DNA of 64,000 bases from contig OZ249436.1 in assembly GCA_965235115.1 (NCBI GenBank), positions 26,042,001-26,106,000 of the forward strand. Direction: 5' to 3'. The position numbers and the translations under genes are program-made. Source of the stretch: Laetmonice hystrix. Taxonomy: Eukaryota. The notes beneath the pieces were generated by a model. It ran no database searches and was not told the DNA's origin. It saw only the letters and a program-made list of their open reading frames with translations. Of the stretch, positions 1-64,000 are shown one piece after another. Within the stretch, counting starts at the first letter, position 1. Each line of letters starts with the position of its first letter.

Positions 1-2024
1 TCTTGGTGCACTGCTTGAGGTAGGTGGCTTGACCTTAAGGACTGACATGTCTGATATTGGTACTGGCTTAATTCCATGAGTTCTTGGGGGAATGTGCCAT
101 TGCTGTGGAGCCGATGTTTTTGATGTGATGGGGGGAACAACTTTCAGTCCTAGGTTTTGGTAGTGCACCAGTTGATAAAGAAGAGCAAGAGCGTGATTGC
201 ACACTCCTTTACCTGCAGTGCAGGAGCAGTGACATGTGATGTCCATATCATCAATGAAGTGTAGCTGAAAGCAAAAGAAGATTATTTAGTTCTTACTGTA
301 TGTGCATCAATATATTATCAATCATAACATCGTGCAAAATATGATAAATTCGTCTCTCACTAAAGTAAAGGGTTGAAGGCCTACATAGGTCTGTTTCTTT
401 CATAAATGTAATGACTACACCTGTGATACCGATCTCAGGTTCCCGCTTCTGTCCCCCAGAGGATAATGCCAAGGCTGTGTTTAAAATCTGGTATTTTTTT
501 ATTATTTAAATACGGTATACAACAAATGTTATCTTACCTCATAAACAGATTAACACCTCATAGTCATAGGAACTCCTTTCCTAAGGAAAAAGCAAAAACT
601 TTAAAAAAACTGCAAGTTCAACATTCAGGAATTACTGAATTAGTAATATATATGCAAAACGCCAACGGTGAAAAAGAGTACTGTAACTAAAACAATAATA
701 ACACAATGTTAAAGACAAACTTGAAAAATTACCTGCAGGTCCTTTGGTGGGTCATTTTTTTTCATTGAGGGGTAACACTGTGCTCTTACCTCCACCTGAC
801 TGCCACTCTTTACTGCGCATAAAATGTAGAGAAATGTATTAGTTTTATTGCATACATTGTGTAGGCCCTATAGTACAGTTATTCCTTTCTTAGCACATTA
901 TCATGTTATAATATCTAATTATCAAAAGACTTATATTATAATCTTTTTTTTATTTCCCACTGGCCCTGTACTATAGTATAGTATCGTATAGCTGACCCAA
1001 GACAAATCTGTCAAAACTGACATAGGCTAGGGCCGACTTAGACAATGAAAATATTTGTTTATCATCAATTTAAGTTTATAGTCTACGAGTATGATCTGGA
1101 TTGATAACTATGAATGATTATGAATGGGTTCTTATGAATGACATTACAACACCACATATATGCCTGGGCCAGACTTGGTCTAGCCTAAGTTTGGTAGCCT
1201 AATTAAGTTCAGCCTTCAGGTGACTGTTGCAGGAGCCCGTTTCACTGACACCCTAAATTCCTAATCAAATGCCCTAATTTGTAAACGGTAACATCCCGAC
1301 TTGTTGACACCATGCACTCAAAACAAGTCAACTGTCAAGTGTTTCACTTTCACTAAAAAAAATGTCTCTCCTTGGAATTCAATGGCAATGTTAGGCCTAA
1401 TTGCAAGGATCGACATTTTTTTTGAAACGGTATGTCTCAATCAGAATCTTGGATGTCCCCACTAGGCCTACTTGACTTGTTGGGATGTCCTTGCTTGGTG
1501 AAACCTAAACTAAAGCAGGCAAAGCTGGCGTAGGCCCTACGGTCATTCCGACCATCCCCCGGGCCCGGCGGCGCAACACTGCCGCCAACGCAACAGTACG
1601 TCGAGCGGTAGCCTACTCTAGTCCTGGCCCCGGTCATGGCTAAACCTCTATGTCTACGAATAGGATTACCGAAAACAAATGTTGGAAAAAAAACCAGTTT
1701 AGGCATAATCTTATTCTAACTCACTTTTAAAAACTCACTGGCACATCCACTAGCACACTAACGTAGATCTAGTCGTGACAGAGTCGTGGACGTAGGGGTC
1801 AGTGATCGTAATCTACTTCAACAGTTCAAGCATTGCTTACCTTCTACGTTGTGAACATATGATCCAGAAAAAAACGCATCTATATAGCCTCTTGTCTGCA
1901 ACTTCTTTGGCACCTTGGCCTTTTCGTTGGCCCATTTCTCAATGAAGGAATGGGACAACGGAGGAACTTTTGACAAATTCCTTGTCCACACCGTCGGCAC
2001 CGTCGCCTGCTTCGCCATTGACAT
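1..2024 (-). CDS. SWIM-YqaJ exonuclease gene E0, partial: exons 2024-1841, 812-733, 264-<1
   Basis: Canonical GT-AG junctions join in frame: ..VHNVE|VKSGSQVEVRAQCYPSMKKNDPPKDLQ|LHFIDDMDITCHCSCTAGKGVCNH. Confidence 0.85.
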
Positions 2025-2091
2025 GTTGATCCCGCCCCAGTTTGTTTGCGTCATTAGCCTCGTTTTCGATTTTAATGGCCACTCCGTGATA
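1..2091 (+). mobile_element. ISL2EU-like transposon copy E0 (right part only)
   Basis: Matches 6991-9081; contains exons 1-3 of the exonuclease gene and the putative right TIR. Confidence 0.85.
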
Positions 2092-2190
2092 CACGACTCA
2101 TATCACGCCGACGTCATTACGTAACCTAAACGAGGCCAATGACGCAAACAACAAGGCCACTGTGCCACGTGACTGTGCTCAGCGGCGAAG
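2025..2190. promoter_or_regulatory. Putative CpG-rich bidirectional promoter between divergent ATGs (repeated at each junction)
   Basis: 166 bp between exonuclease ATG (2024, -) and transposase ATG (2191, +). CpG-dense, with TGACGCAA on both arms, GACGTCA and an E-box CACGTG near 2166. Confidence 0.5.
2042..2151. repeat. Unit junction: imperfect inverted repeats (putative TIR-R 2042-2091, TIR-L 2101-2151) around spacer CACGACTCA; present at all 7 junctions
   Basis: ttgtttgcgtcattagcctcgtttt pairs with aaaacgaggccaatgacgcaaacaa (24/25 in most copies). Inner cgtgata/tatcacg pair perfectly and taatg/catta are in register. Confidence 0.75.
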
Positions 2191-4846
2191 ATGGACGGTC
2201 GTCACGATCACTGCTGTGTCCCTCTCTGTAAAAGCGACTCGCGATACCACAGACACAGTGAAGTTAGCTTTCATGCCATCCCAAAAGATGAACAAAGGAG
2301 GCGTGCGTGGATTCATGCAATCAGGAGGGACCCTGGATCGAACTTTAAGGCGAATATTTAACCCGAAAAAAGTCGCAATATCAATCAATGTCAAGCCGAC
2401 TGCTAGATGATAGATGTAGATTCTAGACCTTGCTTGTCTGGCCTAGCCTAGTTAAGTTGTAGTCTATACTGTTGAGTGTTGTAGCTAGCATGATTAAAGA
2501 CTAGAGTATAGGATCGAGGGTATAGATCATGTAGAATTAAGTCTGGATTGACCACGACCTGCTCTGCTAGCGGGCCGCTGCTAGCACTGGCGCCAGGCCG
2601 AACCCCAGCGTCAGCGTGCTTTACGTTTAGTTCTGACATTTATTTACCTGTCTTGAGTGATTGTCATTGTGACTGTGAGTGTAACTGTCCGATCAGTCAA
2701 GTCGTTACCGAAACGAGTTGTAACTGAACCGATAGTGCAGTAGCCAAAACAAAATGGGGGTTAATTTTATTCATGTCAAAATTCTTTCTGGTGTGGTAGG
2801 CTCTGCGCCGGGAAGGGGGGCGGGGGTGACGATCTTAGACTTTGGAGGTTCATGTCAACAATAAACAAAGCATGTGTAGACTAGTCTATGTCGGCCTCTA
2901 TTCTTCAGTATCTAGATCTATATGCTAGGATTAGGAATAGGATTAGTTTTGATGGCAGTCTGTGACTTATGGCATGATACAATTTTACAAGACAGTATAG
3001 TCAACAATATCAACATTTGCAACAAATCAAGTGTTACTGCCAGGCCTAAGTAGCCTACTGCTTCCCTTATTGAATAAAAAACTTATTAGACCTACTTTAT
3101 TACTATTAGTCTAGTAGATGTAGTAGTAGTAGCAGATCTAGTACCCAAAATTCTGATTTAAATGAAAATTGAATCCACCCAGTGACCCTCCCAAGGCTGC
3201 TATTTTAATGCTGATGGGTTTAATAGCCAGGATAATTCAGTATGACGTATTCAATCAGTGTATCTATAGTTTACATGTAATTGTATATTAATTTGAATTT
3301 CTTTTCACACCCTAGATCACGTCTTCAACTAAGGTGTGCTCCATACATTTTGAGAAAGAAGAGATTGTGAGAAGCCTGTGTGGAAAGCGGGGTGTGATTA
3401 AGGGAGCAGTTCCTCACATATTTCCATGGACCAAGGAAGCAAAGAGCAGGAAGTCACCAAAAGAGCGAGTGTCATCTTCTAATGAACCAACTGACGATGG
3501 GTTCCAAATGGAATACACTGAAGAAAGGTAAATTCAAATGAATATCAAGGTTAGAAATTAGGCCAAAAAAAACTTTTTTGGAAGCACAGCAAAAGGCCAT
3601 CCAGCCTCCCGCTAACATCGATACCTGAATATGAAAGACACTTTATGTATTTGATAAAATATCAACTGGTTGGTAATGAAAAATTTCTTGGGTAATCTTT
3701 GGTAATCAACTTCGGTCAAAATGGCAGTGCTATTAGACTAATGACATTCCTTCTTTTTCAGTGAAGCAAGCAGAAGTGTACTCTGTCAACGGCCTCCGGA
3801 CCACGACTACACAGCATGTTCAAAACTGACACTTGAAGAGCAATTGGAAGCTGCCTTGGAACACATCAGTCTGCTGGAGAAGGAAAATGAACACCTGAAA
3901 TCGCTCCAGTTTGGTATCAATCGTTTCACCACAGATCCTGACATGATAGCTTTCTATACAGGCTTCAGATCATATGATATGTTCTTGACAACATATTTAG
4001 CCTTTCAACCAACCGCTGATAATCTTCTCACTTAATTGGTCACAGCTTCAGAGACAGAGGTCCGGTACTGCCTTAAACACAAGAGACATTCTCAAACATG
4101 AACATCTATCCACAATAGATCAATTTTTCTTATTTATGTGTCGCTGCAAGGCTGGCCTTTTTGAGAAGGATCTGGCCGAAAGGTTCCATGTAAGCTTCTC
4201 AACAGTGAGCAGAATCATCATCACCTGGGCAAACTATCTGTACCACCTTTTAGGAGCTTTGCCAATTTGGCCATCTTGTCATCAGATTCGTAAACATATT
4301 CCTGAATGTTTCAAAGAGTGTTATTCTACCACCAGAGTAATATTAGATTGCACTGAGATTAAGTGTCAAACTCCATCAGCGTTGTACTTGAACAGCCAGC
4401 TGTACTCGCACTACAAGGGTAGCACAACATTCAAGGGTCTGATAGGCATTACACCCTCAGGAGCAGTGTCATTTGTCAGTCAGCTGTACACGGGAAGCAT
4501 TTCTGATGTGGACATCACAGCAAGATGTGGCATTGTTGACCTTTTAGACTCACTGGACTCGGTCATGGCTGACAAGGGATTCACCATCCAAGACCTTTTG
4601 GCTACAAAAGGTGCCACTCTGACAATTCCGCCTTTTTTAACTGACAAACGTAACCAATTTGAAAGGGGTGAGGTTCAGCAAACACAGAATATTGCCAGGG
4701 TCAGGATCCACGTTGAACGCGCTATCAGGAGAGTAAAGGAGTATCACATATTTGATAGCATTGTACCACTAAGCCTGGCAGGTACCATCAACCAAATGTG
4801 GACTGTTTGTGCTCTTCTGACAAACTTCAGAGGTCCCCTTTTCTGA
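2191..4846 (+). pseudogene. THAP-HTH-DDE transposase E1, frameshifted (+4 bp near 4033). Exons 2191-2349, 3316-3527, 3762-4846
   Basis: The spliced N-terminus MDGRHDHCCVPLC..W..NFK|ITSSTKVCSIHF..GAVP is a C2CH THAP domain. cacttaattggt versus cacttggt in intact copies gives an immediate TAA. Confidence 0.9.
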
Positions 4847-5577
4847 CTGCATCATGAAGCATTTCTCAACAAATCGATCATCCCATCACAGTGTTAGTTG
4901 CTGTATCTGACGTGATACAGTATTTGCTGCCATGTCTTGAAAAATTAAAAATTGGTTGTCGGGTTGAAATAAGTTCCTTTTAAAAAGAATATGTACTTTG
5001 ATGATAAAATGTTATTTACGGTACATGTGAATTCTTTTTAATAGAAAAATGGAAGTTTACTTGACAATTTTACTGTCAAGGAGGGGAACATGTATTTCTT
5101 TAGATTTACCCCAGTGTAGTAACGAAAATAAAGATGAAGAATAATGGAAGACTCAAAAAATTCTTCAGTATTTTTAATTCATCCTGCAATAATTGATCGA
5201 TTTACAAATGGTTTACAGATGACATAAATACGGTTACATGATCTGGTCATGTAACATTTAAGTTACCTGTTATCTTACGGAGGGTTCTCCTTTTTTTTCT
5301 GTAATTAGTAAGTTTACCCATTTCATTCCACTCCGAGTTCCAGAACGTGAACATCGAACGTCTTCTTCCGTCTCCAACGCACCCAAGATCCTTATTTTAA
5401 AACATAATTTTACATTTCTATTGCCCTACCGTACCTACCTGACAACACAGTAGCATTAAGCAAGTTCTCACACTGTATATGACTGAAATCTTTTCCACAT
5501 TAAATATTTTGCAAAGCATTACTATCATCATCATACAGTAATATTTGGTCATCATGTACAGTTTGTGTCGTCACATT

Positions 5578-8500
5578 TCATTTCTTGGTAGATAACAAAC
5601 ATGGCAAGAAATGCTCAAAATAAAAGGCATCAATATTTTCTTTCATATCTGCAAAGAAAGCTTCATCAACATTAATTTTTTCAATTATGAAATCTTCTTC
5701 ACAGTAAACCATAAAGTCACACCAAGTGAATCCTGTAATGCCTAACTGTCCCATTATTTGGTAGTAGTACTCATGAGTGTGTTTTAATGTGTACTCCCCA
5801 TTCTGTCTTTGCTTCAAATATTTACAATCTTTATAGGTGTTGTTCCCAGGACACTTTATCTCAAGAAGCCCCCACTTTTGGTCATCTGCAGCAGATGGAT
5901 CATATACGAGACGATCAGGAGAGCATCCCAAATGACAAGCTGTGGGATTTATAACAAAGCCAATGCTGTACACATTCACTCCCTTGTTTCTGGCGTAAAC
6001 TTCTGCAGCTGTAGGTTCAAGTTCTAGCCCTCTTCTCATCAAACTGGTTTGCACAGTTTTGCCTGTTATCAGTCTTTGAGCCAGAGATTTAAAGTCTCCA
6101 CGTCTACAGCAAATCTGTTTGAATTTTGATGCAGTTAGACGTGACTCGCGAAGTTTTTTCCACTCAGGGCAAGCACTTTGTGTACGGGTTGAAAGTTCGT
6201 AATCTGATGACTCGAGCAATGAGCATGAAAGCCCATCATACAATGACTGAAGTTCATCCGTGAGGGTAGACACATCGTAAATCATAGGAAGAACAGGTCT
6301 CGGGCAAGGTGGTCGACTGGGGGCATCAGCTACCATTAGTATACGGTCTCCTGGGGTGGTTATCTGCTGCTGATGAGCAAGCGTAGAGCCAAATGGGACT
6401 GGACCAATCTCACTTGGAACAGCTACAGGCCAGTTATCCGGAAGTAGCTGCAAAATCTGGGGCTGTACAGCCTGTGTAGACATCATGCGCGATATTTTAC
6501 CAGCAAAGTTCCTCGAGACGTCATAAATCGGTTCTCTGATAGGGTTATACAGCGTAGATGTAATTCCTGAGATAAAAAGAAAATATTAAAAGACTATGAA
6601 CAATTTTTACAACATACAATGTTACAATTGCAACAATATTTATCCACTTGGGTAAAAAAACAGAAATCAAGTTTCACATGTTTTTAGCCCCAACCCCCTC
6701 GGGTTGTGGGGTAACAAGAACTGTTAGAAGCTAGAGGATGTGGTTAACCAATATTCTGGGGCTCACCTGCGCTAGATAATACATGATAAAATTCAATGAA
6801 AATATGATGTAAAACTTATTTCATATTTAATTCTTGAAAGGTTCTTGAATTAACAAAAAATTGTTAATCAAAACAGTTTAATCAAGTTAACCACAAAAAG
6901 GAATTTAAAATCAAATAATGCTTTAATTTATGTTTATTGTTTTGTATTTGAAAAACAATTCTCACCAGTGACAATTCTTTTCTTCTTGACTCTTGGTGCA
7001 CTGCTTGAGGTAGGTGGCTTGACCTTAAGGACTGACATGTCTGATATTGGTACTGGCTTAATTCCATGAGTTCTTGGGGGAATGTGCCATTGCTGTGGAG
7101 CCGATGTTTTTGATGTGATGGGGGGAACAACTTTCAGTCCTAGGTTTTGGTAGTGCACCAGTTGATAAAGAAGAGCAAGAGCGTGATTGCACACTCCTTT
7201 ACCTGCAGTGCAGGAGCAGTGACATGTGATGTCCATATCATCAATGAAGTGTAGCTGAAAGCAAAAGAAGATTATTTAGTTCTTACTGTATGTGCATCAA
7301 TATATTATCAATCATAACATCGTGCAAAATATGATAAATTCGTCTCTCACTAAAGTAAAGGGTTGAAGGCCTACATAGGTCTGTTTCTTTCATAAATGTA
7401 ATGACTACACCTGTGATACCGATCTCAGGTTCCCGCTTCTGTCCCCCAGAGGATAATGCCAAGGCTGTGTTTAAAATCTGGTATTTTTTTATTATTTAAA
7501 TACGGTATACAACAAATGTTATCTTACCTCATAAACAGATTAACACCTCATAGTCATAGGAACTCCTTTCCTAAGGAAAAAGCAAAAACTTTAAAAAAAC
7601 TGCAAGTTCAACATTCAGGAATTACTGAATTAGTAATATATATGCAAAACGCCAACGGTGAAAAAGAGTACTGTAACTAAAACAATAATAACACAATGTT
7701 AAAGACAAACTTGAAAAATTACCTGCAGGTCCTTTGGTGGGTCATTTTTTTTCATTGAGGGGTAACACTGTGCTCTTACCTCCACCTGACTGCCACTCTT
7801 TACTGCGCATAAAATGTAGAGAAATGTATTAGTTTTATTGCATACATTGTGTAGGCCCTATAGTACAGTTATTCCTTTCTTAGCACATTATCATGTTATA
7901 ATATCTAATTATCAAAAGACTTATATTATAATCTTTTTTTTATTTCCCACTGGCCCTGTACTATAGTATAGTATCGTATAGCTGACCCAAGACAAATCTG
8001 TCAAAACTGACATAGGCTAGGGCCGACTTAGACAATGAAAATATTTGTTTATCATCAATTTAAGTTTATAGTCTACGAGTATGATCTGGATTGATAACTA
8101 TGAATGATTATGAATGGGTTCTTATGAATGACATTACAACACCACATATATGCCTGGGCCAGACTTGGTCTAGCCTAAGTTTGGTAGCCTAATTAAGTTC
8201 AGCCTTCAGGTGACTGTTGCAGGAGCCCGTTTCACTGACACCCTAAATTCCTAATCAAATGCCCTAATTTGTAAACGGTAACATCCCGACTTGTTGACAC
8301 CATGCACTCAAAACAAGTCAACTGTCAAGTGTTTCACTTTCACTAAAAAAAATGTCTCTCCTTGGAATTCAATGGCAATGTTAGGCCTAATTGCAAGGAT
8401 CGACATTTTTTTTGAAACGGTATGTCTCAATCAGAATCTTGGATGTCCCCACTAGGCCTACTTGACTTGTTGGGATGTCCTTGCTTGGTGAAACCTAAAC

Positions 8501-9014
8501 TAAAGCAGGCAAAGCTGGCGTAGGCCCTACGGTCATTCCGACCATCCCCCGGGCCCGGCGGCGCAACACTGCCGCCAACGCAACAGTACGTCGAGCGGTA
8601 GCCTACTCTAGTCCTGGCCCCGGTCATGGCTAAACCTCTATGTCTACGAATAGGATTACCGAAAACAAATGTTGGAAAAAAAACCAGTTTAGGCATAATC
8701 TTATTCTAACTCACTTTTAAAAACTCACTGGCACATCCACTAGCACACTAACGTAGATCTAGTCGTGACAGAGTCGTGGACGTAGGGGTCAGTGATCGTA
8801 ATCTACTTCAACAGTTCAAGCATTGCTTACCTTCTACGTTGTGAACATATGATCCAGAAAAAAACGCATCTATATAGCCTCTTGTCTGCAACTTCTTTGG
8901 CACCTTGGCCTTTTCGTTGGCCCATTTCTCAATGAAGGAATGGGACAACGGAGGAACTTTTGACAAATTCCTTGTCCACACCGTCGGCACCGTCGCCTGC
9001 TTCGCCATTGACAT
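5578..9014 (-). CDS. SWIM zinc finger + YqaJ/lambda-exonuclease-like PD-(D/E)xK nuclease, 513 aa (E1). Exons 9014-8831, 7802-7723, 7254-6966, 6566-5578
   Basis: 184+80+289+989=1542 nt, open, all introns GT-AG. SWIM CSC-x6-CNH; YqaJ motifs W...R..RLTAS, G.ELE, SPDRLV, LLEIKCP, YYYQIMGQL. The start could be the ATG 6 nt downstream. Confidence 0.9.
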
Positions 9015-9180
9015 GTTGATCCCGCCCCAGTTTGTTTGCGTCATTAGCCTCGTTTTCGATTTTAATGGCCACTCCGTGATACACGACTCATATCACGCCG
9101 ACGTCATTACGTAACCAAAACGAGGCCAATGACGCAAACAACAAGGCCACTGTGCCACGTGACTGTGCTCAGCGGCGAAG

Positions 9181-11836
9181 ATGGACGGTCGTCACGATCA
9201 CTGCTGTGTCCCTCTCTGTAAAAGCGACTCGCGATACCACAGACACAGTGAAGTTAGCTTTCATGCCATCCCAAAAGATGAACAAAGGAGGCGTGCGTGG
9301 ATTCATGCAATCAGGAGGGACCCTGGATCGAACTTTAAGGCGAATATTTAACCCGAAAAAAGTCGCAATATCAATCAATGTCAAGCCGACTGCTAGATGA
9401 TAGATGTAGATTCTAGACCTTGCTTGTCTGGCCTAGCCTAGTTAAGTTGTAGTCTATACTGTTGAGTGTTGTAGCTAGCATGATTAAAGACTAGAGTATA
9501 GGATCGAGGGTATAGATCATGTAGAATTAAGTCTGGATTGACCACGACCTGCTCTGCTAGCGGGCCGCTGCTAGCACTGGCGCCAGGCCGAACCCCAGCG
9601 TCAGCGTGCTTTACGTTTAGTTCTGACATTTATTTACCTGTCTTGAGTGATTGTCATTGTGACTGTGAGTGTAACTGTCCGATCAGTCAAGTCGTTACCG
9701 AAACGAGTTGTAACTGAACCGATAGTGCAGTAGCCAAAACAAAATGGGGGTTAATTTTATTCATGTCAAAATTCTTTCTGGTGTGGTAGGCTCTGCGCCG
9801 GGAAGGGGGGCGGGGGTGACGATCTTAGACTTTGGAGGTTCATGTCAACAATAAACAAAGCATGTGTAGACTAGTCTATGTCGGCCTCTATTCTTCAGTA
9901 TCTAGATCTATATGCTAGGATTAGGAATAGGATTAGTTTTGATGGCAGTCTGTGACTTATGGCATGATACAATTTTACAAGACAGTATAGTCAACAATAT
10001 CAACATTTGCAACAAATCAAGTGTTACTGCCAGGCCTAAGTAGCCTACTGCTTCCCTTATTGAATAAAAAACTTATTAGACCTACTTTATTACTATTAGT
10101 CTAGTAGATGTAGTAGTAGTAGCAGATCTAGTACCCAAAATTCTGATTTAAATGAAAATTGAATCCACCCAGTGACCCTCCCAAGGCTGCTATTTTAATG
10201 CTGATGGGTTTAATAGCCAGGATAATTCAGTATGACGTATTCAATCAGTGTATCTATAGTTTACATGTAATTGTATATTAATTTGAATTTCTTTTCACAC
10301 CCTAGATCACGTCTTCAACTAAGGTGTGCTCCATACATTTTGAGAAAGAAGAGATTGTGAGAAGCCTGTGTGGAAAGCGGGGTGTGATTAAGGGAGCAGT
10401 TCCTCACATATTTCCATGGACCAAGGAAGCAAAGAGCAGGAAGTCACCAAAAGAGCGAGTGTCATCTTCTAATGAACCAACTGACGATGGGTTCCAAATG
10501 GAATACACTGAAGAAAGGTAAATTCAAATGAATATCAAGGTTAGAAATTAGGCCAAAAAAAACTTTTTTGGAAGCACAGCAAAAGGCCATCCAGCCTCCC
10601 GCTAACATCGATACCTGAATATGAAAGACACTTTATGTATTTGATAAAATATCAACTGGTTGGTAATGAAAAATTTCTTGGGTAATCTTTGGTAATCAAC
10701 TTCGGTCAAAATGGCAGTGCTATTAGACTAATGACATTCCTTCTTTTTCAGTGAAGCAAGCAGAAGTGTACTCTGTCAACGGCCTCCGGACCACGACTAC
10801 ACAGCATGTTCAAAACTGACACTTGAAGAGCAATTGGAAGCTGCCTTGGAACACATCAGTCTGCTGGAGAAGGAAAATGAACACCTGAAATCGCTCCAGT
10901 TTGGTATCAATCGTTTCACCACAGATCCTGACATGATAGCTTTCTATACAGGCTTCAGATCATATGATATGTTCTTGACAACATATTTAGCCTTTCAACC
11001 AACCGCTGATAATCTTCTCACTTAATTGGTCACAGCTTCAGAGACAGAGGTCCGGTACTGCCTTAAACACAAGAGACATTCTCAAACATGAACATCTATC
11101 CACAATAGATCAATTTTTCTTATTTATGTGTCGCTGCAAGGCTGGCCTTTTTGAGAAGGATCTGGCCGAAAGGTTCCATGTAAGCTTCTCAACAGTGAGC
11201 AGAATCATCATCACCTGGGCAAACTATCTGTACCACCTTTTAGGAGCTTTGCCAATTTGGCCATCTTGTCATCAGATTCGTAAACATATTCCTGAATGTT
11301 TCAAAGAGTGTTATTCTACCACCAGAGTAATATTAGATTGCACTGAGATTAAGTGTCAAACTCCATCAGCGTTGTACTTGAACAGCCAGCTGTACTCGCA
11401 CTACAAGGGTAGCACAACATTCAAGGGTCTGATAGGCATTACACCCTCAGGAGCAGTGTCATTTGTCAGTCAGCTGTACACGGGAAGCATTTCTGATGTG
11501 GACATCACAGCAAGATGTGGCATTGTTGACCTTTTAGACTCACTGGACTCGGTCATGGCTGACAAGGGATTCACCATCCAAGACCTTTTGGCTACAAAAG
11601 GTGCCACTCTGACAATTCCGCCTTTTTTAACTGACAAACGTAACCAATTTGAAAGGGGTGAGGTTCAGCAAACACAGAATATTGCCAGGGTCAGGATCCA
11701 CGTTGAACGCGCTATCAGGAGAGTAAAGGAGTATCACATATTTGATAGCATTGTACCACTAAGCCTGGCAGGTACCATCAACCAAATGTGGACTGTTTGT
11801 GCTCTTCTGACAAACTTCAGAGGTCCCCTTTTCTGA
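9181..11836 (+). pseudogene. Transposase E2, same +4 frameshift
   Basis: cacttaattggt near 11023; split ORFs 10834-11025 and 11126-11836. Confidence 0.9.
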
Positions 11837-16008: not shown

Positions 16009-16174
16009 GTTGATCCCGCCCCAGTTTGTTTGCGTCATTAGCCTCGTTTTCGATTTTAATGGCCACTCCGTGATACACGACTCATATCACGCCGACGTCA
16101 TTACGTAACCAAAACGAGGCCAATGACGCAAACAACAAGGCCACTGTGCCACGTGACTGTGCTCAGCGGCGAAG

Positions 16175-50898: not shown

Positions 50899-53310
50899 TC
50901 GCGTAGTAGTAGTAGTAGTAGTTGTTAACAATTGTTAACAGGGGTCATAACTCGGTCATTTTTCAAGATATCTAAGTCAAACTTGGTGGGCATGTTGCCA
51001 GTCACCAACTCTGATGTGACAATGAGTCATGACGTCACATGACGTAACGTCCTGACGTCATGACGTCATTCGTGTTGTGACTATTAGGACGGTTTTCAAA
51101 GTCAATATGGATACTATCCAAAAACTGATGACACTGTCAGAATTGGGCAAGGTCCTGATAATTTTTTTGCAAATATTTTGACCTTTGACCTTTGACCTGT
51201 CTGAAATCAGGGTCAAAGGTCATAAAATGCTTAAATCCCTCTTTCTTCCTTAATTTTCATTAAAATTTTATGAAATTGCACAGGAATGGTGTCTAATTAG
51301 AGTTCCAAAGGAATCCGCCTTTCTACAATTGTTTGACCTACATTCGCTGAGTCACGTGACCTCAAAATTTTGAACAGTGGTCAATTTGGCTATCTATGGC
51401 TACAACTCATAAACGGTGCCGGTAAGGGCCATGGTTACTATTGAACACGAATAGGAAGTCATGCATGCTCTTTCATTTGACGCCAAGTTTGATGACGTAG
51501 TGTGACGTATGACGTCATAATGACATCATCAATGTTTTCTAAGGCCTATAACTCCTAAACGATGGGAGATAAAGCCATGGTTACTATTGAACATGCATAG
51601 GAAGTCATACATGCTCCTTCAATTGACACCAATATTCATTAGGTAGCGTGACGTATGACGTCATAATGACGTAATTGGTATCTTCTATGGCCTATAACTC
51701 GAAAACGGTGCAAGATAGGGTCATAGTTACCATTGAACATGAATAGGCAGTCATACAAGCTCTTTCCACTGACACCAAGTTTAAGGATGTAGCTTGACGT
51801 ATGACGTCATAATGACGTCATCAATATTTTCTAAGGACTGTAACTCCTAAACGGTGGGAGATAAAGGCATGGTTACTATTGAACATGAATAGGAAGTCAT
51901 ATGCACTTTCAAATGACACCATCATTTATTAGGTAGCGTGACATATGACGTCATAATGACGTCATTGGTGTCTTCCATGGCCTATAACTCGAGAACAGTG
52001 CAAGATAGAACCATAGTTACTATTAAAGACGAATAGGAAATCATGCAGGCTCTTTCTATTGAGGCCAAGTTTGATGACGTAGGATGAAGTATGACGTAAT
52101 GACGTCATCAATATTTTCTAAGGCCTGTAACTCCTAAACGGTGGGAGATAAAGCCATGGTTACTATTGAACATGAATAGGAAGTCATACATGGTCTTTCA
52201 ATTGACACCAACATTTATTAGGTAGCGTGACGTATGACGTCATAATGACGTCATTGGTATCTTCTATGGCCTATAAGTCGAAAACAGTGCAAGATAGGAC
52301 CATAGTTACTATTGAACACGAATAGGAAGTCATACATGCTCTTTCAATTGAGGCCAAGTTTGATGACGTAGCGTGACGTATGACGTCATAATGACGTCAT
52401 CAATATTTTCTAGGGCCTTTAACTCCTAAACGGTGGGAGATAAACCCATGGTTACTATTGGACATGAGTAGGAAGTCATACATGCTCTTTCAATTGACAC
52501 CTACATTTATTAGGTAGCGTGACGTATGACGTAATAATGACGCCAGGAGTCATATCTCGGTCGTTTTTCAAGATATCTAAGTCAAACTTGGTGGACATGT
52601 TGATAGTCACCAACTCTGTTTTGACAATGAGTCATGACGTCACATGACGTAACGTCATGACGTACAATGACGTCATCAATATTTTGTAGGGCCTATAATT
52701 CCTAAACGGTTGGAGATAAAGCCATGGTTACTATTGAACATAAATAGGAAGTCATACATGATCTTTCAATTGACGCCAACATTTATTAGGTAGCGTGACG
52801 TATGATGTCATAATAACGTCATTACTATCTTCTATGGCCTATAAGTCGAAAACAGTGCAAGATAGGACCATAGTTACTATTGAACACGAATAGGAAGTCC
52901 TACATGCTCTTTCAATTGAGGCCAAGTTTGATGACGTAGCGTGACGTATGACGTCATAATGACGTCATCAGTATTTTCTAGGGCCTATAACTCTTAAACG
53001 GTGGGAGATAAAGTCACAGTTACTATTGAGCACGAATAGGAAGTCATGCATGCTCTTTTAACTGAGGCCAAGTTTAATGACGTAGCATGACGTATGACGT
53101 CATAGTGGCGTTATCTATATTTTCTAAGGCCTATAACTCCTAAACGGTGGGAGATAAAGCCATGGTTACTACTGAACATGAATAGGAAATCATACATGCT
53201 CTTTCAATTGACACCAACATTTATAAACATCATAATGACCTTACTAAGTCATAGGGACATGCCCCCCAAGGGATGGGATCCATCGTGGTTTTCACCACGA
53301 CAGGTCTAGT
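50899..53310 (+). mobile_element. HINE body 2 (head displaced, probably 47780)
   Basis: Starts tcgcg(gta)n, near-identical to body 1, same 3' terminus. Confidence 0.8.
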
Positions 53311-53314
53311 TCGC

Positions 53315-53346
<32 letters not shown>

Positions 53347-55733
53347 TGTTAACAATTGTTAACAGGGGTCATAACTCGGTCATTTTTCAAGATATCTAAG
53401 TCAAACTTGGTGGGCATGTTGCCAGTCACCAACTCTGATGTGACAATGAGTCATGACGTCACATGACGTAACGTCATGACGTCATGACGTCATTCGTGTT
53501 GTGACTATTAGGACGGTTTTCAAAGTCAATATGGATACTATCCAAAAACTGATGACACTGTCAGAATTGGGCAAGGTCCTGTGAATTTTTTTGCAAATAT
53601 TTTGACCTTTGACCTTTGACCTGTCTGAAATCAGGGTCAAAGGTCATAAAATGCTTAAATCCCTCTTTCTTCCTTAATTTTCATTAAAATTTTATGAAAT
53701 TGCACAGGAATGGTGTCTAATTAGAGTTCCAAAGGAATCCGCCTTTCTACAATTGTTTGACCTACATTCGCTGAGTCACGTGACCTCAAAATTTTGAACA
53801 GTGGTCAATTTGGCTATCTATGGCTACAACTCATAAACGGTGCCGGTAAGGGCCATGGTTACTATTGAACACGAATAGGAAGTCATGCATGCTCTTTCAT
53901 TTGACGCCAAGTTTGATGACGTAGTGTGACGTATGACGTCATAATGACATCATCAATGTTTTCTAAGGCCTATAACTCCTAAACGATGGGAGATAAAGCC
54001 ATGGTTACTATTGAACATGCATAGGAAGTCATACATGCTCCTTCAATTGACACCAATATTCATTAGGTAGCGTGACGTATGACGTCATAATGACGTAATT
54101 GGTATCTTCTATGGCCTATAACTCGAAAACGGTGCAAGATAGGGTCATAGTTACCATTGAACATGAATAGGAAGTCATACAAGCTCTTTCCACTGACACC
54201 AAGTTTAAGGATGTAGCTTGACGTATGACGTCATAATGACGTCATCAATATTTTCTAAGGGCTGTAACTCCTAAACGGTGGGAGATAAAGGCATGGTTAC
54301 TATTGAACATGAATAGGAAGTCGTATGCACTTTCAAATGACACCATCATTTATTAGGTAGCGTGACATATGACGTCATAATGACGTCATTGGTGTCTTCC
54401 ATGGCCTATAACTCGAGAACAGTGCAAGATAGAACCATAGTTACTATTAAAAACGAATAGGAAATCATGCATGCTCTTTCTATTGAGGCCAAGTTTGATG
54501 ACGTAGGATGACGTATGACGTAATGACGTCATCAATATTTTCTAAGGCCTGTAACTTCTAAACGGTGGGAGATAAAGCCTTGGTTACTATTGAACATGAA
54601 TAGGAAGTCATACATGGTCTTTCAATTGACACCAACATTTATTAGGTAGCGTGACGTATGACGTCATAATGACGTCATTGGTATCTTCTATGGCCTATAA
54701 GTCGAAAACAGTGCAAGATAGGACCATAGTTACTATTGAACACGAATAGGAAGTCATACATGCTCTTTTAATTGAGGCCAAGTTTGATGACGTAGCGTGA
54801 CGTATGACGTCATAATGACGTCATCAATACTTTCTAGGGCCTTTAACTCCTAAACGGTTGGAGACAAACCCATGGTTACTATTGGACATGAATAGGAAGT
54901 CATACATGCTCTTTCAATTGACACCTACATTTACTAGGTAGCGTGACGTATGACGTAATAATAACGTCAGGAATCATATCTCGGTCGTTTTTCCAGATAT
55001 CTAAGTCAAACTTGGTGGACATGTTGATAGTCACCAACTCTGTTTTGACAATGAGTCATGACGTCACATGACGTAACGTCATGACGTACAATGACGTCAT
55101 CAATATTTTGTAGGGCCTCTAATTCCTAAACGGTTGGAGATAAAGCCATGGTTACTATTGAACATGAATAGGAAGTCATACATGCTCTTTCAATGGACGC
55201 CAACATTTATTAGGTAGCGTGACGTATGATGTCATAATGACGTCATTGGTATCTTCTATGGCCTATAAGTCGAAAACAGTGCAAGATAGAACCATAGTTA
55301 CTATTGAACACGAATAGGAAGTCCTACATGTTCTTTCAATTGAGGCCAAGTTTGATGACGTAGCGTGACGTATGACGTCATAATGACGTCATCAGTATTT
55401 TCTAGGGCCTCTAACTCTTAAACGGTGGGAGATAAAGCCACAGTTACTATTGAACACGAATAGGAAGTCATGCATGCTCTTTCAACTGAGGCCAAGTTTA
55501 ATGACGTAGCATGACGTATGACGTCATAGTGGCGTTATCTATATTTTCTAAGGCCTATAACTCCTAAACGGTGGGAGATAAAGCCATGGTTACTACTGAA
55601 CATGAATAGGAAATCATACATGCTCTTTCAATGACACCAACATTTATAAACGTCATAATGACCTTACTAAGTCATAGGGACATGCCCCCCAAGGGATGGG
55701 ATCCATCGTGGTTTTCACCACGACAGGTCTAGT
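53311..55733 (+). mobile_element. HINE body 3 (head displaced, probably 47700)
   Basis: As body 2. Confidence 0.8.
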
Positions 55734-58265
55734 TATTATTTGCGTAGTAGTAGTAGTAGTAGTAGTAGTTGTTAACAATTGTTAACAGGGGTCATAACTC
55801 GGTCATTTTTCAAGATATCTAAGTCAAACTTGGTGGGCATGTTGCCAGTCACTAACTCTGATGTGACAATGAGTCATGACGTCACATGACGTAACGTCAT
55901 GACGTCATGACGTCATTCGTGTTGTGACTATTAGGACGGTTTTCAAAGTCAATATGGATACTTTCCAGGAACTGATGACACTGTCAGAATTGGGCAAGGT
56001 CCTGATAATTCTTTTGCAAATATTTTGACCTTTGACCTATGACCTGTCTGAAATCTGGGTCAAAGGTCATAAAATGCTTAAATCCCTCCTTCTTCCTTAA
56101 TTTTCATTAAAATTTTATGAAATTGCACAGGAATGGTGTCTAATGAGAGTTCCAAAGGAATCCGCCTTGCTACAATTGATTTGACCTACATTCGCTGAGT
56201 CACGTGACCTCAAAGTTTTGAACAGTGGTCAATTTGGCTATCTATGGCTATAACTCATAAACGGTGCCAGTAAGGGCCATAGTTACTATTGAAGACGAAT
56301 AGGAAGTCATGCATGCTCTTTCATTTGACACCAATATTTATTAGGTAGCGTGACGTATGACGTCATAATGACGTCATTGGTATCTTCTATGGCCTATAAG
56401 TCGAAAACAGTGCAAGATAGGACCATAGTTACTATTGAACACGAATAGGAAGTCATACATGCTCTTTCATTTGAGGCCAAGTTTAATGACGTAGCGTGAC
56501 GTATGACGTCATAATGAAGTCATCAATATTTTCTAGGGCCTATCACTCTTAAACGGTGGGAGGTAAAGCCAGAGTTACTATTAAACACGAATAGGAAGTC
56601 ATGAATGCTCTTTCAGTTGACGCCAAGTTTGATGACATAGCGTGACCTATGACGTCACAATGACGTCATCCGTATTTTCTAGGGTCTATACGTCCTAAAT
56701 GGTGGAAGATAAAGCCATGGTTACTATTGAAAACAAATAGGAAGTCATGGATGCTCTTTCAACTGAGGCCAAGTTTAATGACGTAGCTTGACGTTTGACG
56801 TCATAGTGACGTCATCAATATTTTCTAAGGCCTATAACTCCTAAACGGTGGGAGATAAAACCATGGTTACTATTGGACATGAATAGGAAGTCATGCATGC
56901 TCTTTCAATAATTATATATATTGACGCCAAGTTTGATGACGTAGTGTGACGTATGACGTCAAAATGACATCATCAATGTTTTCTAAGGCCTATAACTCCT
57001 AAACGGTGGGAGATAAAGCCATGGTTACTATTGAACATGCATAGGAAGTCATACATGCTCTTTCAATTGACACCAACATTTATTAGGTAGCGTGACGTAT
57101 GACGTCATAATGACGTCATTGGTATCTTCTATGGCCTATAAGTCGAAAACGGTGCAAGATAGGACCATAGTTACTATTGAACACGAATAGGAAGTCATAC
57201 ATGCTCTTTCAATTGAGGCCAAGTTTAATGATGTAGCGTGACGTATGACGTCATAATGAAGTCATCAATATTTTCTAGGGCCTATCACTCTTAAACGGTG
57301 GGAGGTAAAGGCAGAGTTACTATTAAACACGAATAGGAAGTCATGAATGCTCTTTCAGTTGACGCCAAGTTTGATGACATAGCGTGACCTATGACGTCAC
57401 AATGACGTCATCCGTATTTTCTAGGGTATATACGTCCTAAATGGTGGGAGATAAAGCCATGGTTACTATTGAAAACATATAGGAAGTCATGGATGCTCTT
57501 TCAACTGAGGCCAAGTTTAATGACGTAGCTTGACGTTTGACGTCATAGTGACGTCATCAATATTTTCTAAGGCCTATAACTCCTAAACGGTGGGAGATAA
57601 AACCATGGTTACTATTGGACATGAATAGGAAGTCATGCATGCTCTTTCAATTGACACCAACATTTATTAGGTAGCGTGACGTATGACGTAATAATGACGT
57701 CATTGGTATCTTCTATGGCCTATAAGTCGAAAACAGTGCAAGATAGGACCATAGTTACTATTGAACATGTATAGGAAGTCATACATGCTCTTTCAATTAA
57801 AGCCAAGTTTGATGAGGTAGCGTGATGTATGACGTCATGTGACGTCATCAATATTTTCTAGGGCCTATAACTCTTAAACGGTGGAAGATAAAGCCATGGT
57901 TACTATTGAACATGAATAGGAAGTCATACATGCTCCTTCAAGTGACACCAATATTCATTAGGTAGCGTGACGTATTACGACATAATGACGTCATTGGCAT
58001 CTTGTAAGACCTATAACTCAAAGGCGGTGCAAGATATGGCCATAGTTAATATTGAACGTGAATAGGAAGTCATGCTCTTTCAATTGACGCCAAGTTAGAT
58101 GACATAGCATTACGTATGACGTCATAAATACATATCCTGACATCATACATCATAATGACATCATTTAGTCGATAGAGCCATAGTTAACCCTACTCAGAAC
58201 ATTACGGAAAGGACATGTCGCCCAGGGGATGGGATCCATCGTGGTCTAGCCACGACATGTCTAGT
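55734..58265 (+). mobile_element. HINE body 4 (different subfamily; head probably 45031)
   Basis: Residual (TAT)n then (GTA)n; tail tcgtgg-tctag-ccacga..CTAGT. Confidence 0.78.
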
Positions 58266-60418
58266 TATTATTATTATTTGCGGCGTAGTAGTAGTAGTAG
58301 TAGTAGTAGTAAACAGGGGTCGTGTATCTCGGCCGTTTTTCAAGATATCTAAGTCAAACTTGGTGGACATGTTAATAGTCACCAACTCTGATCTGACAAT
58401 GAGTCATGACGTCACACGACGTAACGTCATGACGTCATGACGTCATTCGTGTTCTGAATATTAGGACGGCTTTCAAGGTCACTATTGATACTTTTGAGGA
58501 ACTGATGACACAGTCTAAATTGGGCAAGGACCTAATTGATTTTTTTCAAAAATTTTGACCTTTGACCTTTGACATGTCTAAAAGCTAGGTCGACTTCCTC
58601 AATTTTCATTAGAATTTCATGAAATTGCACAGGGATGGTCTCTAACGAGAGCTTCAAAGGAATCCGCTTCGCTACAATTGATTTGACCTATATTCGTTGA
58701 GTCACGTGACCTGAAAGATTTGAACAGAGGTCAATATAGATATATATGGCTATAACTAAGAAACGGTGCCAGATAGGGCCATAGTTACTATTGAACACGA
58801 ATAGGAAGTCATGTATGCTCTTTCAATTGACGCCAAGTTTGATGACGTAGCATGAAGTATGACGTCATAATGACGTCATCTATATTTTCTAAGGCCTAGA
58901 ACTCCTCAATGGTGGGAGATAAAGCCATGATTACTATTGAACACGAATAGGAAGTCATGTATGCTCTTTTAATTGACGTCAAGTTTGATGACGTATCGTG
59001 ACGTATGACGTCATAATGACGTCATTGGTATCTTCTATGGCCTATAACTCGAAAACGGTGCAGCATAGGACCATAGTTACTATTGAACACGAATAGGAAG
59101 TCATATGTGCTCTTTCAATTGAGACCAAGTTTGATGACGTAGCGTGACGTATGACGTCATAAGGACGTCATCAATATTTTCTAAGGCCTATAGCTTGTAA
59201 ATGGTGGGAGATAAAGCCATGGTTACTTTTGAACATGAATAGGAAGTCATAGATCCTCTTTTAAATGACATCAAGATTCATGACGTAGCATGACGTAGGT
59301 CATAAAGAGTGACATCAATATTTTCTAAGGTTTATGACTCCTAAACGGTTGGAGATAAAGCCATGGTTACTATTGAACTTCAATAGGAAGTCATACATGC
59401 TCTTTCAATTGACACCAACATTTATTAGGTAGCGTGACGTATGACGTCATAATGACGTCATTTGTATCTTCTATGGCCTATAACTCATAAACGGTGCCAT
59501 ATAGGCCCATAGTTACTATTGAACACGAATAGGAAGTCATATATGTTCTTTCCATTGTGGCAAGTTTGATGACGTAGCGTGAAGTATGACGTCATAATGA
59601 TGCCATCAATATGTTCTAAGGCCTCTAACTCGGAAATGGAGGGCGATAAAGCCATGGTTACTACTGAACATGAATAGAAAGTCATAGATCCTCTTTTAAA
59701 TGACATCACGATTCATGACGTAGCATGACGTATAATGACGTCATCAATATATTCTAAGGCTTATGACTCCTAAACGGTGGGCGATAAAGCCATGGTTACT
59801 ATTGAACTTGAATAGGAAGTCATACATGCTCTTTCCATTGCCACTAACATTTATTAGGTACCGTGACGTATGACGTTATAATGATGTCTTTGGTATCTTC
59901 TATGGCCTATAACTCGAGAACGGTGCAAGATATGACCATATTTACTACTGAAGGCGAATAGGAAGTCATATATGCTCTTTCAATTGACACCAAGATTAAT
60001 GATGTAGCATCACATATGACGTCATAATGACATCATCAATATTTTCTAAGGAATATAACTCCTAAACGGTGGCAGATAAAGCCATGGTTACTATTGAACA
60101 TGAATAGGAAGTTATATGCTCTTTGAATTGACACCAACATTTATTAGGTAGCGTGACGTATGACGTCGTAATTACGTCATTGCCATCTTCTAAGGATTTT
60201 CAGAGGCCTGTAACTACCAAACGGTGCTAGATAGCACCATAGTTACTATTGAACATGAATAGTAATAGTCATAGATCATAATGACGAAATTTGCATCTTC
60301 TAAGGCTTATCATCACGGGTGCAAGATAGCACCATACCTAGTTATCCCTACTCAGAACATGTTGGACGGGACACCCCGGGGATGGGATCCATTGTGGTAT
60401 CGCCACAACGAATCTAGT
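58266..60418 (+). mobile_element. HINE body 5 (most divergent, outermost 3' end)
   Basis: Residual (TAT)n, (GTA)n, diverged conserved block; tail ttgtgg-tatcg-ccacaa..CTAGT. Confidence 0.78.
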
Positions 60419-62894
60419 TACTATTAGTCTAGTAGATGTAGTAGTAGTAGCAGATCTAGTACCCAAAATTCTGATTTAAATGAAAATTGAATCCACCCAG
60501 TGACCCTCCCAAGGCTGCTATTTTAATGCTGATGGGTTTAATAGCCAGGATAATTCAGTATGACGTATTCAATCAGTGTATCTATAGTTTACATGTAATT
60601 GTATATTAATTTGAATTTCTTTTCACACCCTAGATCACGTCTTCAACTAAGGTGTGCTCCATACATTTTGAGAAAGAAGAGATTGTGAGAAGCCTGTGTG
60701 GAAAGCGGGGTGTGATTAAGGGAGCAGTTCCTCACATATTTCCATGGACCAAGGAAGCAAAGAGCAGGAAGTCACCAAAAGAGCGAGTGTCATCTTCTAA
60801 TGAACCAACTGACGATGGGTTCCAAATGGAATACACTGAAGAAAGGTAAATTCAAATGAATATCAAGGTTAGAAATTAGGCCAAAAAAAACTTTTTTGGA
60901 AGCACAGCAAAAGGCCATCCAGCCTCCCGCTAACATCGATACCTGAATATGAAAGACACTTTATGTATTTGATAAAATATCAACTGGTTGGTAATGAAAA
61001 ATTTCTTGGGTAATCTTTGGTAATCAACTTCGGTCAAAATGGCAGTGCTATTAGACTAATGACATTCCTTCTTTTTCAGTGAAGCAAGCAGAAGTGTACT
61101 CTGTCAACGGCCTCCGGACCACGACTACACAGCATGTTCAAAACTGACACTTGAAGAGCAATTGGAAGCTGCCTTGGAACACATCAGTCTGCTGGAGAAG
61201 GAAAATGAACACCTGAAATCGCTCCAGTTTGGTATCAATCGTTTCACCACAGATCCTGACATGATAGCTTTCTATACAGGCTTCAGATCATATGATATGT
61301 TCTTGACAACATATTTAGCCTTTCAACCAACCGCTGATAATCTTCTCACTTGGTCACAGCTTCAGAGACAGAGGTCCGGTACTGCCTTAAACACAAGAGA
61401 CATTCTCAAACATGAACATCTATCCACAATAGATCAATTTTTCTTATTTATGTGTCGCTGCAAGGCTGGCCTTTTTGAGAAGGATCTGGCCGAAAGGTTC
61501 CATGTAAGCTTCTCAACAGTGAGCAGAATCATCATCACCTGGGCAAACTATCTGTACCACCTTTTAGGAGCTTTGCCAATTTGGCCATCTTGTCATCAGA
61601 TTCGTAAACATATTCCTGAATGTTTCAAAGAGTGTTATTCTACCACCAGAGTAATATTAGATTGCACTGAGATTAAGTGTCAAACTCCATCAGCGTTGTA
61701 CTTGAACAGCCAGCTGTACTCGCACTACAAGGGTAGCACAACATTCAAGGGTCTGATAGGCATTACACCCTCAGGAGCAGTGTCATTTGTCAGTCAGCTG
61801 TACACGGGAAGCATTTCTGATGTGGACATCACAGCAAGATGTGGCATTGTTGACCTTTTAGACTCACTGGACTCGGTCATGGCTGACAAGGGATTCACCA
61901 TCCAAGACCTTTTGGCTACAAAAGGTGCCACTCTGACAATTCCGCCTTTTTTAACTGACAAACGTAACCAATTTGAAAGGGGTGAGGTTCAGCAAACACA
62001 GAATATTGCCAGGGTCAGGATCCACGTTGAACGCGCTATCAGGAGAGTAAAGGAGTATCACATATTTGATAGCATTGTACCACTAAGCCTGGCAGGTACC
62101 ATCAACCAATGTGGACTGTTTGTGCTCTTCTGACAAACTTCAGAGGTCCCCTTTTCTGACTGCATCATGAAGCATTTCTCAACAAATCGATCATCCCATC
62201 ACAGTGTTAGTTGCTGTATCTGACGTGATACAGTATTTGCTGCCATGTCTTGAAAAATTAAAAATTGGTTGTCGGGTTGAAATAAGTTCCTTTTAAAAAG
62301 AATATGTACTTTGATGATAAAATGTTATTTACGGTACATGTGAATTCTTTTTAATAGAAAAATGGAAGTTTAAAAACTTGACAATTTTACTGTCAAGGAG
62401 GGGAACATGTATTTCTTTAGATTTACCCCAGTGTAGTAACGAAAATAAAGATGAAGAATAATGGAAGACTCAAAAAATTCTTCAGTATTTTTAATTCATC
62501 CTGCAATAATTGATCGATTTACAAATGGTTTACAGATGACATAAATACGGTTACATGATCTGGTCATGTAACATTTAAGTTACCTGTTATCTTACGGAGG
62601 GTTCTCCTTTTTTTTCTGTAATTAGTAAGTTTACCCATTTCATTCCACTCCGAGTTCCAGAACGTGAACATCGAACGTCTTCTTCCGTCTCCAACGCACC
62701 CAAGATCCTTATTTTAAAACATAATTTTACATTTCTATTGCCCTACCGTACCTACCTGACAACACAGTAGCATTAAGCAAGTTCTCACACTGTATATGAC
62801 TGAAATCTTTTCCACATTAAATATTTTGCAAAGCATTACTATCATCATCATACAGTAATATTTGGTCATCATGTACAGTTTGTGTCGTCACATT

Positions 62895-63883
62895 TCATTT
62901 CTTGGTAGATAACAAACATGGCAAGAAATGCTCAAAATAAAAGGCATCAATATTTTCTTTCATATCTGCAAAGAAAGCTTCATCAACATTAATTTTTTCA
63001 ATTATGAAATCTTCTTCACAGTAAACCATAAAGTCACACCAAGTGAATCCTGTAATGCCTAACTGTCCCATTATTTGGTAGTAGTACTCATGAGTGTGTT
63101 TCAATGTGTACTCCCCATTCTGTCTTTGCTTCAAATATTTACACTCTTTATAGGTGTTGTTCCCAGGACACTTTATCTCAAGAAGCCCCCACTTTTGGTC
63201 ATTTGCAGCAGATGGATCATATACGAGACGATCAGGAGAGCATCCCAAATGACAAGCTGTGGGATTTATAACAAAGCCAATGCTGTACACATTCACTCCC
63301 TTGTTTCTGGCGTAAACTTCTGCAGCTGTAGGTTCAAGTTCTAGCCCTCTTCTCATCAAACTGGTTTGCACAGTTTTGCCTGTTATCAGTCTTTGAGCCA
63401 GAGATTTAAAGTCTCCACGTCTACAGCAAATCTGTTTGAATTTTGATGCAGTTAGACGTGACTCGCGAAGTTTTTTCCACTCAGGGCAAGCACTTTGTGT
63501 ACGGGTTGAAAGTTCGTAATCTGATGACTCGAGCAATGAGCATGAAAGCCCATCATACAATGACTGAAGTTCATCCGTGAGGGTAGACACATCATAAATC
63601 ATAGGAAGAACAGGTCTCGGGCAAGGTGGTCGACTGGGGGCATCAGCTACCATTAGTATACGGTCTCCTGGGGTGGTTATCTGCTGCTGATGAGCAAGCG
63701 TAGAGCCAAATGGGACTGGACCAATCTCACTTGGAACAGCTACAGGCCAGTTATCCGGAAGTAGCTGCAAAATCTGGGGCTGTACAGCCTGTGTAGACAT
63801 CATGCGCGATATTTTACCAGCAAAGTTCCTCGAGACGTCATAAATCGGTTCTCTGATAGGGTTATACAGCGTAGATGTAATTC
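62895..63883 (-). CDS. SWIM-YqaJ exonuclease (E7), last exon only (rest lies beyond the window)
   Basis: Open frame; two substitutions (D>N, D>E) and two synonymous SNPs relative to other copies. Confidence 0.88.
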
Positions 63884-64000
63884 CTGAGATAAAAAGAAAA
63901 TATTAAAAGACTATGAACAATTTTTACAACATACAATGTTACAATTGCAACAATATTTATCCACTTGGGTAAAAAAACAGAAATCAAGTTTCACATGTTT

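Follow-up and report, generated by a model that had tools for sequence, protein, structure and literature searches.

A bounded nine-copy array of an ISL2EU transposon in Laetmonice hystrix that probably grew from one end-joined junction

How does a coding DNA transposon come to lie head to tail with itself in many copies, and does it need a gene of its own to do so? The question is raised by a 64,000-nucleotide stretch of the genome of Laetmonice hystrix (assembly GCA_965235115.1, contig OZ249436.1, here C1, positions 26,042,001 to 26,106,000; hereafter the window), which is largely occupied by an array of an element that we assign to ISL2EU, a group of PHIS transposons that carry a transposase gene and a second gene encoding a YqaJ-type exonuclease. 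A first-pass annotation of this DNA had proposed that the array was seeded by an end-joined circle or a double insertion and then expanded, and that the exonuclease promotes the amplification. Having read the array with 60 kb of its own genomic flank on each side of the window and searched the whole 627-Mb assembly, we consider it probable that a single insertion, one end-joined seed junction and stepwise recombinational expansion account for the array, with no need for the YqaJ protein.

A closed array of nine copies

The array is closed and comprises nine copies from C1:26,030,109 to 26,108,420, eight of which are uninterrupted. Self-comparison of the window gives a period of about 6,990 nucleotides (nt) over positions 1–45,032, after which other repeats follow and the unit resumes at 60,418; 38 kb align to themselves at 99.9% with an offset of 6,990, far beyond chance. 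The same-orientation repeats of about 7 kb described in the first-pass annotation are therefore real, with a unit period of 6,970–6,994 nt and 99.6–100% identity between copies; its count of at least eight full-length copies in the window is too high, as six are complete (2099–44026), the window start truncates another and an insert interrupts a further one.

All copies lie on the forward strand. The window opens in the 3′ part of A2 (1–2098); A1 lies upstream, together with the intact outer left end and its AT, at C1:26030109. A3 (2099–9088, 6,990 nt), A4 (9089–16082, 6,994 nt, identical to A2), A5 (16083–23076), A6 (23077–30066), A7 (30067–37056) and A8 (37057–44026) follow whole. A9, the last copy, starts with 1 kb at 44027–45029, and its continuation (60418–64000) runs on to the window-equivalent position 66420, where it ends with an intact right end and the AT duplication. 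Both array ends are thus located, intact and with AT on each side.

A pattern search for the element ends in the assembly returned 12 left and 13 right ends, of which nine belong to the array, one each to single copies on C20, C29 and C30, and the remaining right end to a relic on C5. The element thus occurs in this genome both dispersed and in tandem.

Intact outer ends and one repeated inner junction

Read from the dispersed copies, the element begins ACACCC and ends CGACT, and its terminal inverted repeats are about 58 bp long and imperfect (42 of 59 aligned positions match); a 25-bp inverted pair 60 nt apart, considered as the element ends, proved to be the inner parts of these repeats. 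A common repeat hosts the C30 copy, and 68 of 68 empty paralogous sites carry a single AT; AT is therefore duplicated on insertion. It stands on both sides at the array, C29 and C30, whereas one of the four loci deviates, C20 having AT at its left end but AA at its right. At this locus (C20:11663953–11670800) the outer T and A may be carried by the element rather than duplicated from the target. The outer ends of the array read A-AT ... AT-T, which is the consensus site, A|AT|T with AT duplication, given for ISL2EU in the accessible part of PMC4482050.

All eight inner junctions are identical and differ from this arrangement in that a complete right end is joined to a left end lacking its first 5 nt, with no AT between them. 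In the example at 9031–9142, the right terminal repeat is complete to 9088 and is followed by the left terminal repeat minus its first 5 nt; the same junction recurs at 2098/2099, 16082/16083, 23076/23077, 30066/30067, 37056/37057 and 44026/44027, and once upstream of the window. What had been taken for an invariant host spacer of 9 bp (9082–9090, between TGATA and TATCA arms) consists of 7 nt of the right end and 2 nt of the left end. A clean double insertion of the P-element type, which would leave each junction with a target duplication and both ends intact, does not agree with these joints. Because the junction has no AT and has lost 5 nt, an end-joining step is needed, and this fits a circle, a join between sister chromatids or a double insertion that was trimmed later.

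At each joint (window 9008–9181 in the example) the two start codons also face away from each other across about 170 nt, an arrangement that may make every joint a two-way promoter.

Variants suggest expansion from two lineages

Interior copies differ by 0–7 events in 7 kb, and the variants they carry are shared in blocks between neighbours. A 4-nt insertion is confined to A2–A5, one single-nucleotide polymorphism to A6–A7 and another to A2 and A4; a splice-donor change is present in A2–A8 and absent from A1 and A9, and A8 has, in one short tract, an isolated allele of the dispersed type. Such neighbour-shared blocks argue for repeated unequal exchange and conversion rather than a single rolling-circle burst, and together with the eight identical junctions they support the earlier proposal that the array was seeded once and then expanded.

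A second layer of variation separates the inner from the outer parts of the array. Thirteen sites in the right 3.3 kb split A1–A8 from A9, which has the dispersed-type haplotype, and the three dispersed copies; the left part of A1 is also of the dispersed type, and A9 shares two left-part marks with A2–A8. Polarisation against relic copies and a homologue makes the array type ancestral at five of the 13 sites and derived at three or more, so that it is a second element lineage rather than the product of decay in place. The resulting picture, with the dispersed type outside and the second type around the junction, is what is expected if a circle crossed into a resident copy, and equally what is expected of any dimer expanded by unequal exchange, as interior units would then combine the left part of the last copy with the right part of the first. 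In all three of the other tandem families tested, tandem copies resemble each other more than they resemble the dispersed copy, a likeness that favours a local origin without picking one seed.

On this basis, we suggest the following course of events. A single insertion of an ordinary ISL2EU element at an A|AT|T site came first, as the outer ends of the array show. One end-joining event, of which the repeated junction would be the trace, then probably linked a right end to a left end with loss of AT and 5 nt, forming a head-to-tail dimer to which two different element lineages contributed. Host homologous recombination (that is, repeated unequal exchange and short gene conversion) would have raised the dimer to nine copies, as the variant blocks suggest, and A9 later received a nest of HINE-like repeats. 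The joined ends had most likely been cut by the transposase: an excised copy may have closed into a circle that crossed over with the resident copy, or ends of sister or homologous chromatids may have been linked; alternative transposition of P and Ac provides the basis for inferring sister-chromatid end joining. A second insertion at the same site, trimmed afterwards, would give the same picture. Our expectation is spread almost evenly over these seeds, with the circle and the trimmed double insertion level and the chromatid join slightly behind.

The element and its two genes

The unit carries two convergent genes: a transposase gene of three exons, read inwards from the left end, and a SWIM-YqaJ exonuclease gene of four exons, read inwards from the right end. 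In A4, the transposase exons lie at 9181–9339, 10306–10517 and 10752–11836 on the forward strand, and those of the exonuclease, which has 513 amino acids, at 16008–15825, 14796–14717, 14248–13960 and 13560–12572 on the reverse strand. The transposase (483 amino acids) matches THAP (E=9.5e-11), HTH_Tnp_4 (E=4.1e-11) and DDE_Tnp_4 (E=1.7e-41). The second protein matches YqaJ (PF09588, E=1.3e-21), with a SWIM finger below the Pfam cut-off (E=0.004); its closest homologue is a Branchiostoma protein (62%), and it matches a solved lambda-family exonuclease (PDB 3syy, E=3.5e-14) with corresponding ELEP, SPD, EIK and YYQ blocks. No longer fused forms of the YqaJ protein were found at E<=1e-20, which is weak evidence.

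With a THAP–HTH–DDE transposase, a YqaJ second gene, an AT duplication and terminal inverted repeats (6–259 bp for the group), the earlier assignment to ISL2EU is supported, resting as it does on domains and target duplication. The element shares these two genes, the AT duplication at A|AT|T and an animal host with the ISL2EU group as described in the accessible parts of PMC4482050, PMC4122938 and PMC9179366, and differs from it in its imperfect terminal repeats, in its length (7.0 kb, where the group averages 4.8 kb) and in its ends, which begin AC and AG instead of the usual GG. Two other YqaJ families of this genome begin AAGC, and the GG start is a tendency of ISL2EU ends rather than a defining rule according to the part of PMC4482050 available to us. 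The function of the ISL2EU second gene is given as unknown in the same portions of PMC4482050, PMC4122938 and PMC9179366.

The two genes have fared differently. The transposase frame is open in A1, A6, A7, C29 and C20, A6 and A7 having a GC donor at intron 1, and it is broken in C30 and in six of the nine array copies, namely by frameshift in A2–A5, by a 19-nt deletion in A8 and in A9, which has lost 1 nt close to the end of the transposase. In A1–A8 the YqaJ frame is open, A9 has a changed splice acceptor, and in C30 the frame is broken. The C30 copy also carries a 2,171-bp insertion in YqaJ intron 2 (C30:9169914–9172082), which starts with a short hairpin like HINE-type units.

Sequencing run X4, for which the library kind is unrecorded, skips exactly both predicted transposase introns at GT..AG, whereas runs X1–X3 do not, and its main contig carries the 4-nt insertion that, among the 12 assembled copies, occurs only in A2–A5. 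We infer that X4 is an RNA library and that the interior of the array is transcribed, largely as broken message. One spliced X4 contig (depth 13.7; L058:2579–2862) starts in the host flank of A1; this contig, and no other, has a C>T substitution, absent from the assembly, that introduces an early stop.

An insertion in the last copy

The copies had been described as having no host DNA between them, a description that breaks down in A9, where 15,388 bp of other repeats (45030–60417, forward strand) lie in intron 1. The insert is flanked by TTA and forms a head-to-tail nest of about seven HINE-like units, with a GGGGATGGGAT subterminal repeat, a (GTA)n microsatellite, 146-bp central repeats, a 3′ hairpin and a CTAG end. 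In its motif layout, it resembles HINE (non-autonomous Helentron) elements, for which the available portion of PMC7492417 gives subterminal inverted repeats, a microsatellite, central tandem repeats, a 3′ palindrome and a T-rich site. Internal duplications of 2.4 kb and 3.0 kb are present in the insert, and an Rfam scan of 37000–64000 gave no matches.

Other tandems in the same genome

Genome-wide searches for transposase and YqaJ genes, in which Harbinger queries were scored for the best 136 of 392 and the best 117 of 682 candidates, returned four further end-to-end tandems. Two represent two further ISL2EU families: a three-copy tandem at C11:22.36–22.38 Mb with AAT instead of AT at the junction, and a two-copy tandem at C2:37.88–37.90 Mb with AATG instead of AT. 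With the nine-copy array, three YqaJ families are thus in tandem. The other two are Harbinger tandems, one of three MADF-bearing copies at C5:26.52–26.55 Mb (outer duplication TTA, junction TA) and one of two copies at C10:14.45–14.48 Mb (outer TAA, junction TA); the C10 family, assigned by transposase class, has no YqaJ match nearby, and no MADF domain was confirmed in it. Immediately beyond an intact TTA at C5 lies the end of a different Harbinger-like element. Both Harbinger junctions are one base short of the 3-bp duplication and correspond to one flanking base from each end. Across all five PHIS junctions none is an exact target duplication, the differences being -7, +1, +2, -1 and -1 nt.

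Harbingers with no YqaJ match form the same kind of tandem, which implies that YqaJ is not required. The predicted enrichment of tandems among YqaJ-bearing families is not shown in this genome: tandem loci number 3 of 72 for YqaJ and 2 of 111 for Harbinger (Fisher p=0.38), and with 77 further loci added 3 of 72 against 2 of 188 (p=0.13, or p=0.35 if an array on C12 is counted). This is a weak test that leans in the direction of the first-pass annotation and is not significant. The count leaves out pairs at C8:30.97 Mb (1.4 kb apart), on C30 (108 kb apart) and at C4:34.83 Mb, as well as five close pairs with unlike scores or strands.

Several candidates were rejected as end-to-end tandems. The C12 array (27.55–27.94 Mb, about 24 units of about 13 kb) has a Harbinger-type transposase nested in a long terminal repeat retroelement unit. 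That unit has 545-bp repeats and gag/pol-like and env-like frames, and the array is much larger than the nine-copy one. The 17-kb repeat at C2:36.16 Mb and the 26-kb repeat at C3:16.95 Mb are segmental duplications, the five-fold repeat at C5:29.18 Mb and the two-fold repeat at C4:35.75 Mb are internal duplications, and the candidate at C10:4.13 Mb has no duplication. Near-identical tandem duplications of 4–26 kb at C5:29.18–29.21, C4:35.75, C2:36.16 and C3:16.95 Mb cut through transposons regardless of their ends, suggesting that this genome is generally prone to large tandem duplication.

Weighing the explanations

Although we favour a single insertion, one end-joined junction and stepwise expansion, several observations weigh against this account or limit it. 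None of the three YqaJ tandems is spurious, and the odds ratio for enrichment (2.4–4.0) leans positive. Of the 15–16 sites at which the lineages differ, 13 cluster in the right half of the unit (p=0.002–0.006), so that every seed model needs an extra step, either a mosaic donor or a 2.7-kb conversion. The three seeds are indistinguishable here even after variant polarisation, no circle was observed, contigs being unable to tell a circle from a tandem, and the exact copy number rests on one assembly.

The rival that survives best is the one in which the SWIM-YqaJ exonuclease resects ends or circles and promotes their recombinational re-entry and amplification, as a second mode of propagation. 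The likeness of the protein to lambda-family exonucleases, with its matching motif blocks, speaks for it, as do the open YqaJ frame in A1–A8 beside a mostly broken transposase, the three separate YqaJ families in tandem, which include the longest end-to-end one, and a second gene whose function is stated as unknown in the accessible part of PMC4482050. The proposal also has a published analogue in KolobokP, for the multimers of which the available text of PMC9587614 offers a speculative model of nuclease-induced unequal crossover and discusses circle re-entry. Against it, two Harbinger families with no nearby YqaJ match are in tandem likewise and the locus counts show no significant excess; the contrast in gene integrity reduces to three frameshift events against one splice change; and the duplications that ignore transposon ends indicate a duplication-prone genome. 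Moreover, hobo and Bari1 form such arrays, and to our knowledge neither has been described with a YqaJ-like gene. The claim that the exonuclease promotes amplification thus finds no support here, and we regard it as improbable. A combined scenario, in which PHIS elements routinely join cut ends to each other and the ISL2EU YqaJ resects them and drives recombination into resident copies, seems to us just as doubtful; its routine end-joining would explain both the lack of exact duplications at all five junctions and the TA at both Harbinger junctions.

Less likely again is the model proposed for Bari1, in which one circularised copy is replicated as a rolling circle and the concatemer is inserted in one step. 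Identical junctions with terminal loss, as in Bari1 (in the accessible parts of PMC8834629 and PMC5932611), and the few differences among interior copies agree with it. A concatemer from one circle, however, would lack the intact left end that A1 retains; on either side the array terminates in a complete element end with the canonical duplication, unlike the partial ends of Bari1 arrays; and the outer parts of A1 and A9 belong to a different lineage, while the neighbour-shared blocks require later duplications. In its pure form this model conflicts with the data, and it survives only as a circle with crossover into a resident copy.

The depth of contigs from X1, X2 and X3 over the element is 607, 507 and 279–375, against 91, 93 and 73 over the flank, a ratio of 3.8–6.7. 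The reference flank is 99.4% identical to a locus on C11 (that is, present at two loci), and with flank depth halved the element amounts to about 13, 11 and 8–10 copies per diploid genome in X1–X3, compared with 12 assembled; contig depth is no copy number, and all runs come from one sample and study, possibly the assembly's own sample. A true number of only one or two copies is therefore unlikely, and a number of exactly nine is unproven. Least likely of all is that the array is mostly an assembly artefact (that is, one or two real copies, or haplotypes stitched in tandem). The identity of A2 with A4, the lack of long reads and the single study behind the runs speak for it; against it, the depth fits many copies, stitching of dispersed copies cannot produce the junction or the array-only 4-nt insertion, which is present in X4, and contigs of X1 and X2 pass the junction by 30 letters, one below our 31-letter rule for bridging.

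Relation to known tandem transposons

End-to-end joining followed by multiplication is a known route from a transposon to a satellite-like array. The closest parallel is Bari1 (Drosophila melanogaster, Tc1/mariner), in which full-length elements lie head to tail, every junction lacks the first nucleotides of one terminal repeat and another element inserted later in the array. Bari1 arrays have 32–130 copies (PMC5932611), the units of which each lack the first 2 nt (PMC8834629), as given in the accessible parts of these papers. They consist of a 1.7-kb unit, are fixed and have partial elements at their edges, whereas the array described here has a 7-kb two-gene unit in nine copies, is very young, has lost 5 nt and AT at its junctions and retains intact outer ends with the duplication.

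As in hobo and P-element tandems, one dimer junction appears ancestral and expansion follows by unequal exchange. According to the available text of McGurk and Barbash 2018 (PMC5932611), P dimers carry the duplication where their units meet, 24 of 36 hobo dimers have terminal deletions and one hobo array has about 16 copies; the paper also holds that double insertion is compatible with a junction from which the duplication is absent. The exact target duplication is preserved between the units of P dimers and of the hobo array, but at none of the five PHIS junctions here. Joins in hobo circles are mostly imperfect: among 38 circles described in the accessible part of PMC2803484, three are perfect joins, 12 have 1–20 extra nt and 23 lack part of one end.

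KolobokP resembles the present case in that a multimer is bounded by one target duplication and the element encodes a second nuclease. Its adjacent units share long terminal direct repeats, whereas here units meet at a damaged end-to-end joint; no long direct repeat of the KolobokP type is present within the unit, all of whose alignments to the array are whole copies.

Neither of two ISL2EU papers (PMC4482050 and PMC9179366) mentions tandem arrays in its accessible part, and no ISL2EU array is mentioned in those of PMC12628747, PMC2871265 and PMC12730594. Our literature search returned no whole-element ISL2EU or Harbinger array, although Repbase entries and supplements may record some. The array is of the Bari1 and hobo kind, and new for ISL2EU within the literature searched.

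Implications

The array alone shows no new mechanism, and the YqaJ protein is not needed to explain it; a YqaJ-driven mode is possible, with a small probability in our estimation, and if true would give a role to an unexplained second gene and a second way for the element to multiply. What the locus offers is a fully bounded and very young coding DNA transposon in the course of turning into a macro-repeat, whose two ends, seed junction and variant order can still be read. The set of junctions is the part most worth following, given that the array and its four sister tandems in one genome form a small natural test set for the origin of tandems (that is, double insertion versus end-joining), and one that bears equally on the role of the ISL2EU YqaJ gene.

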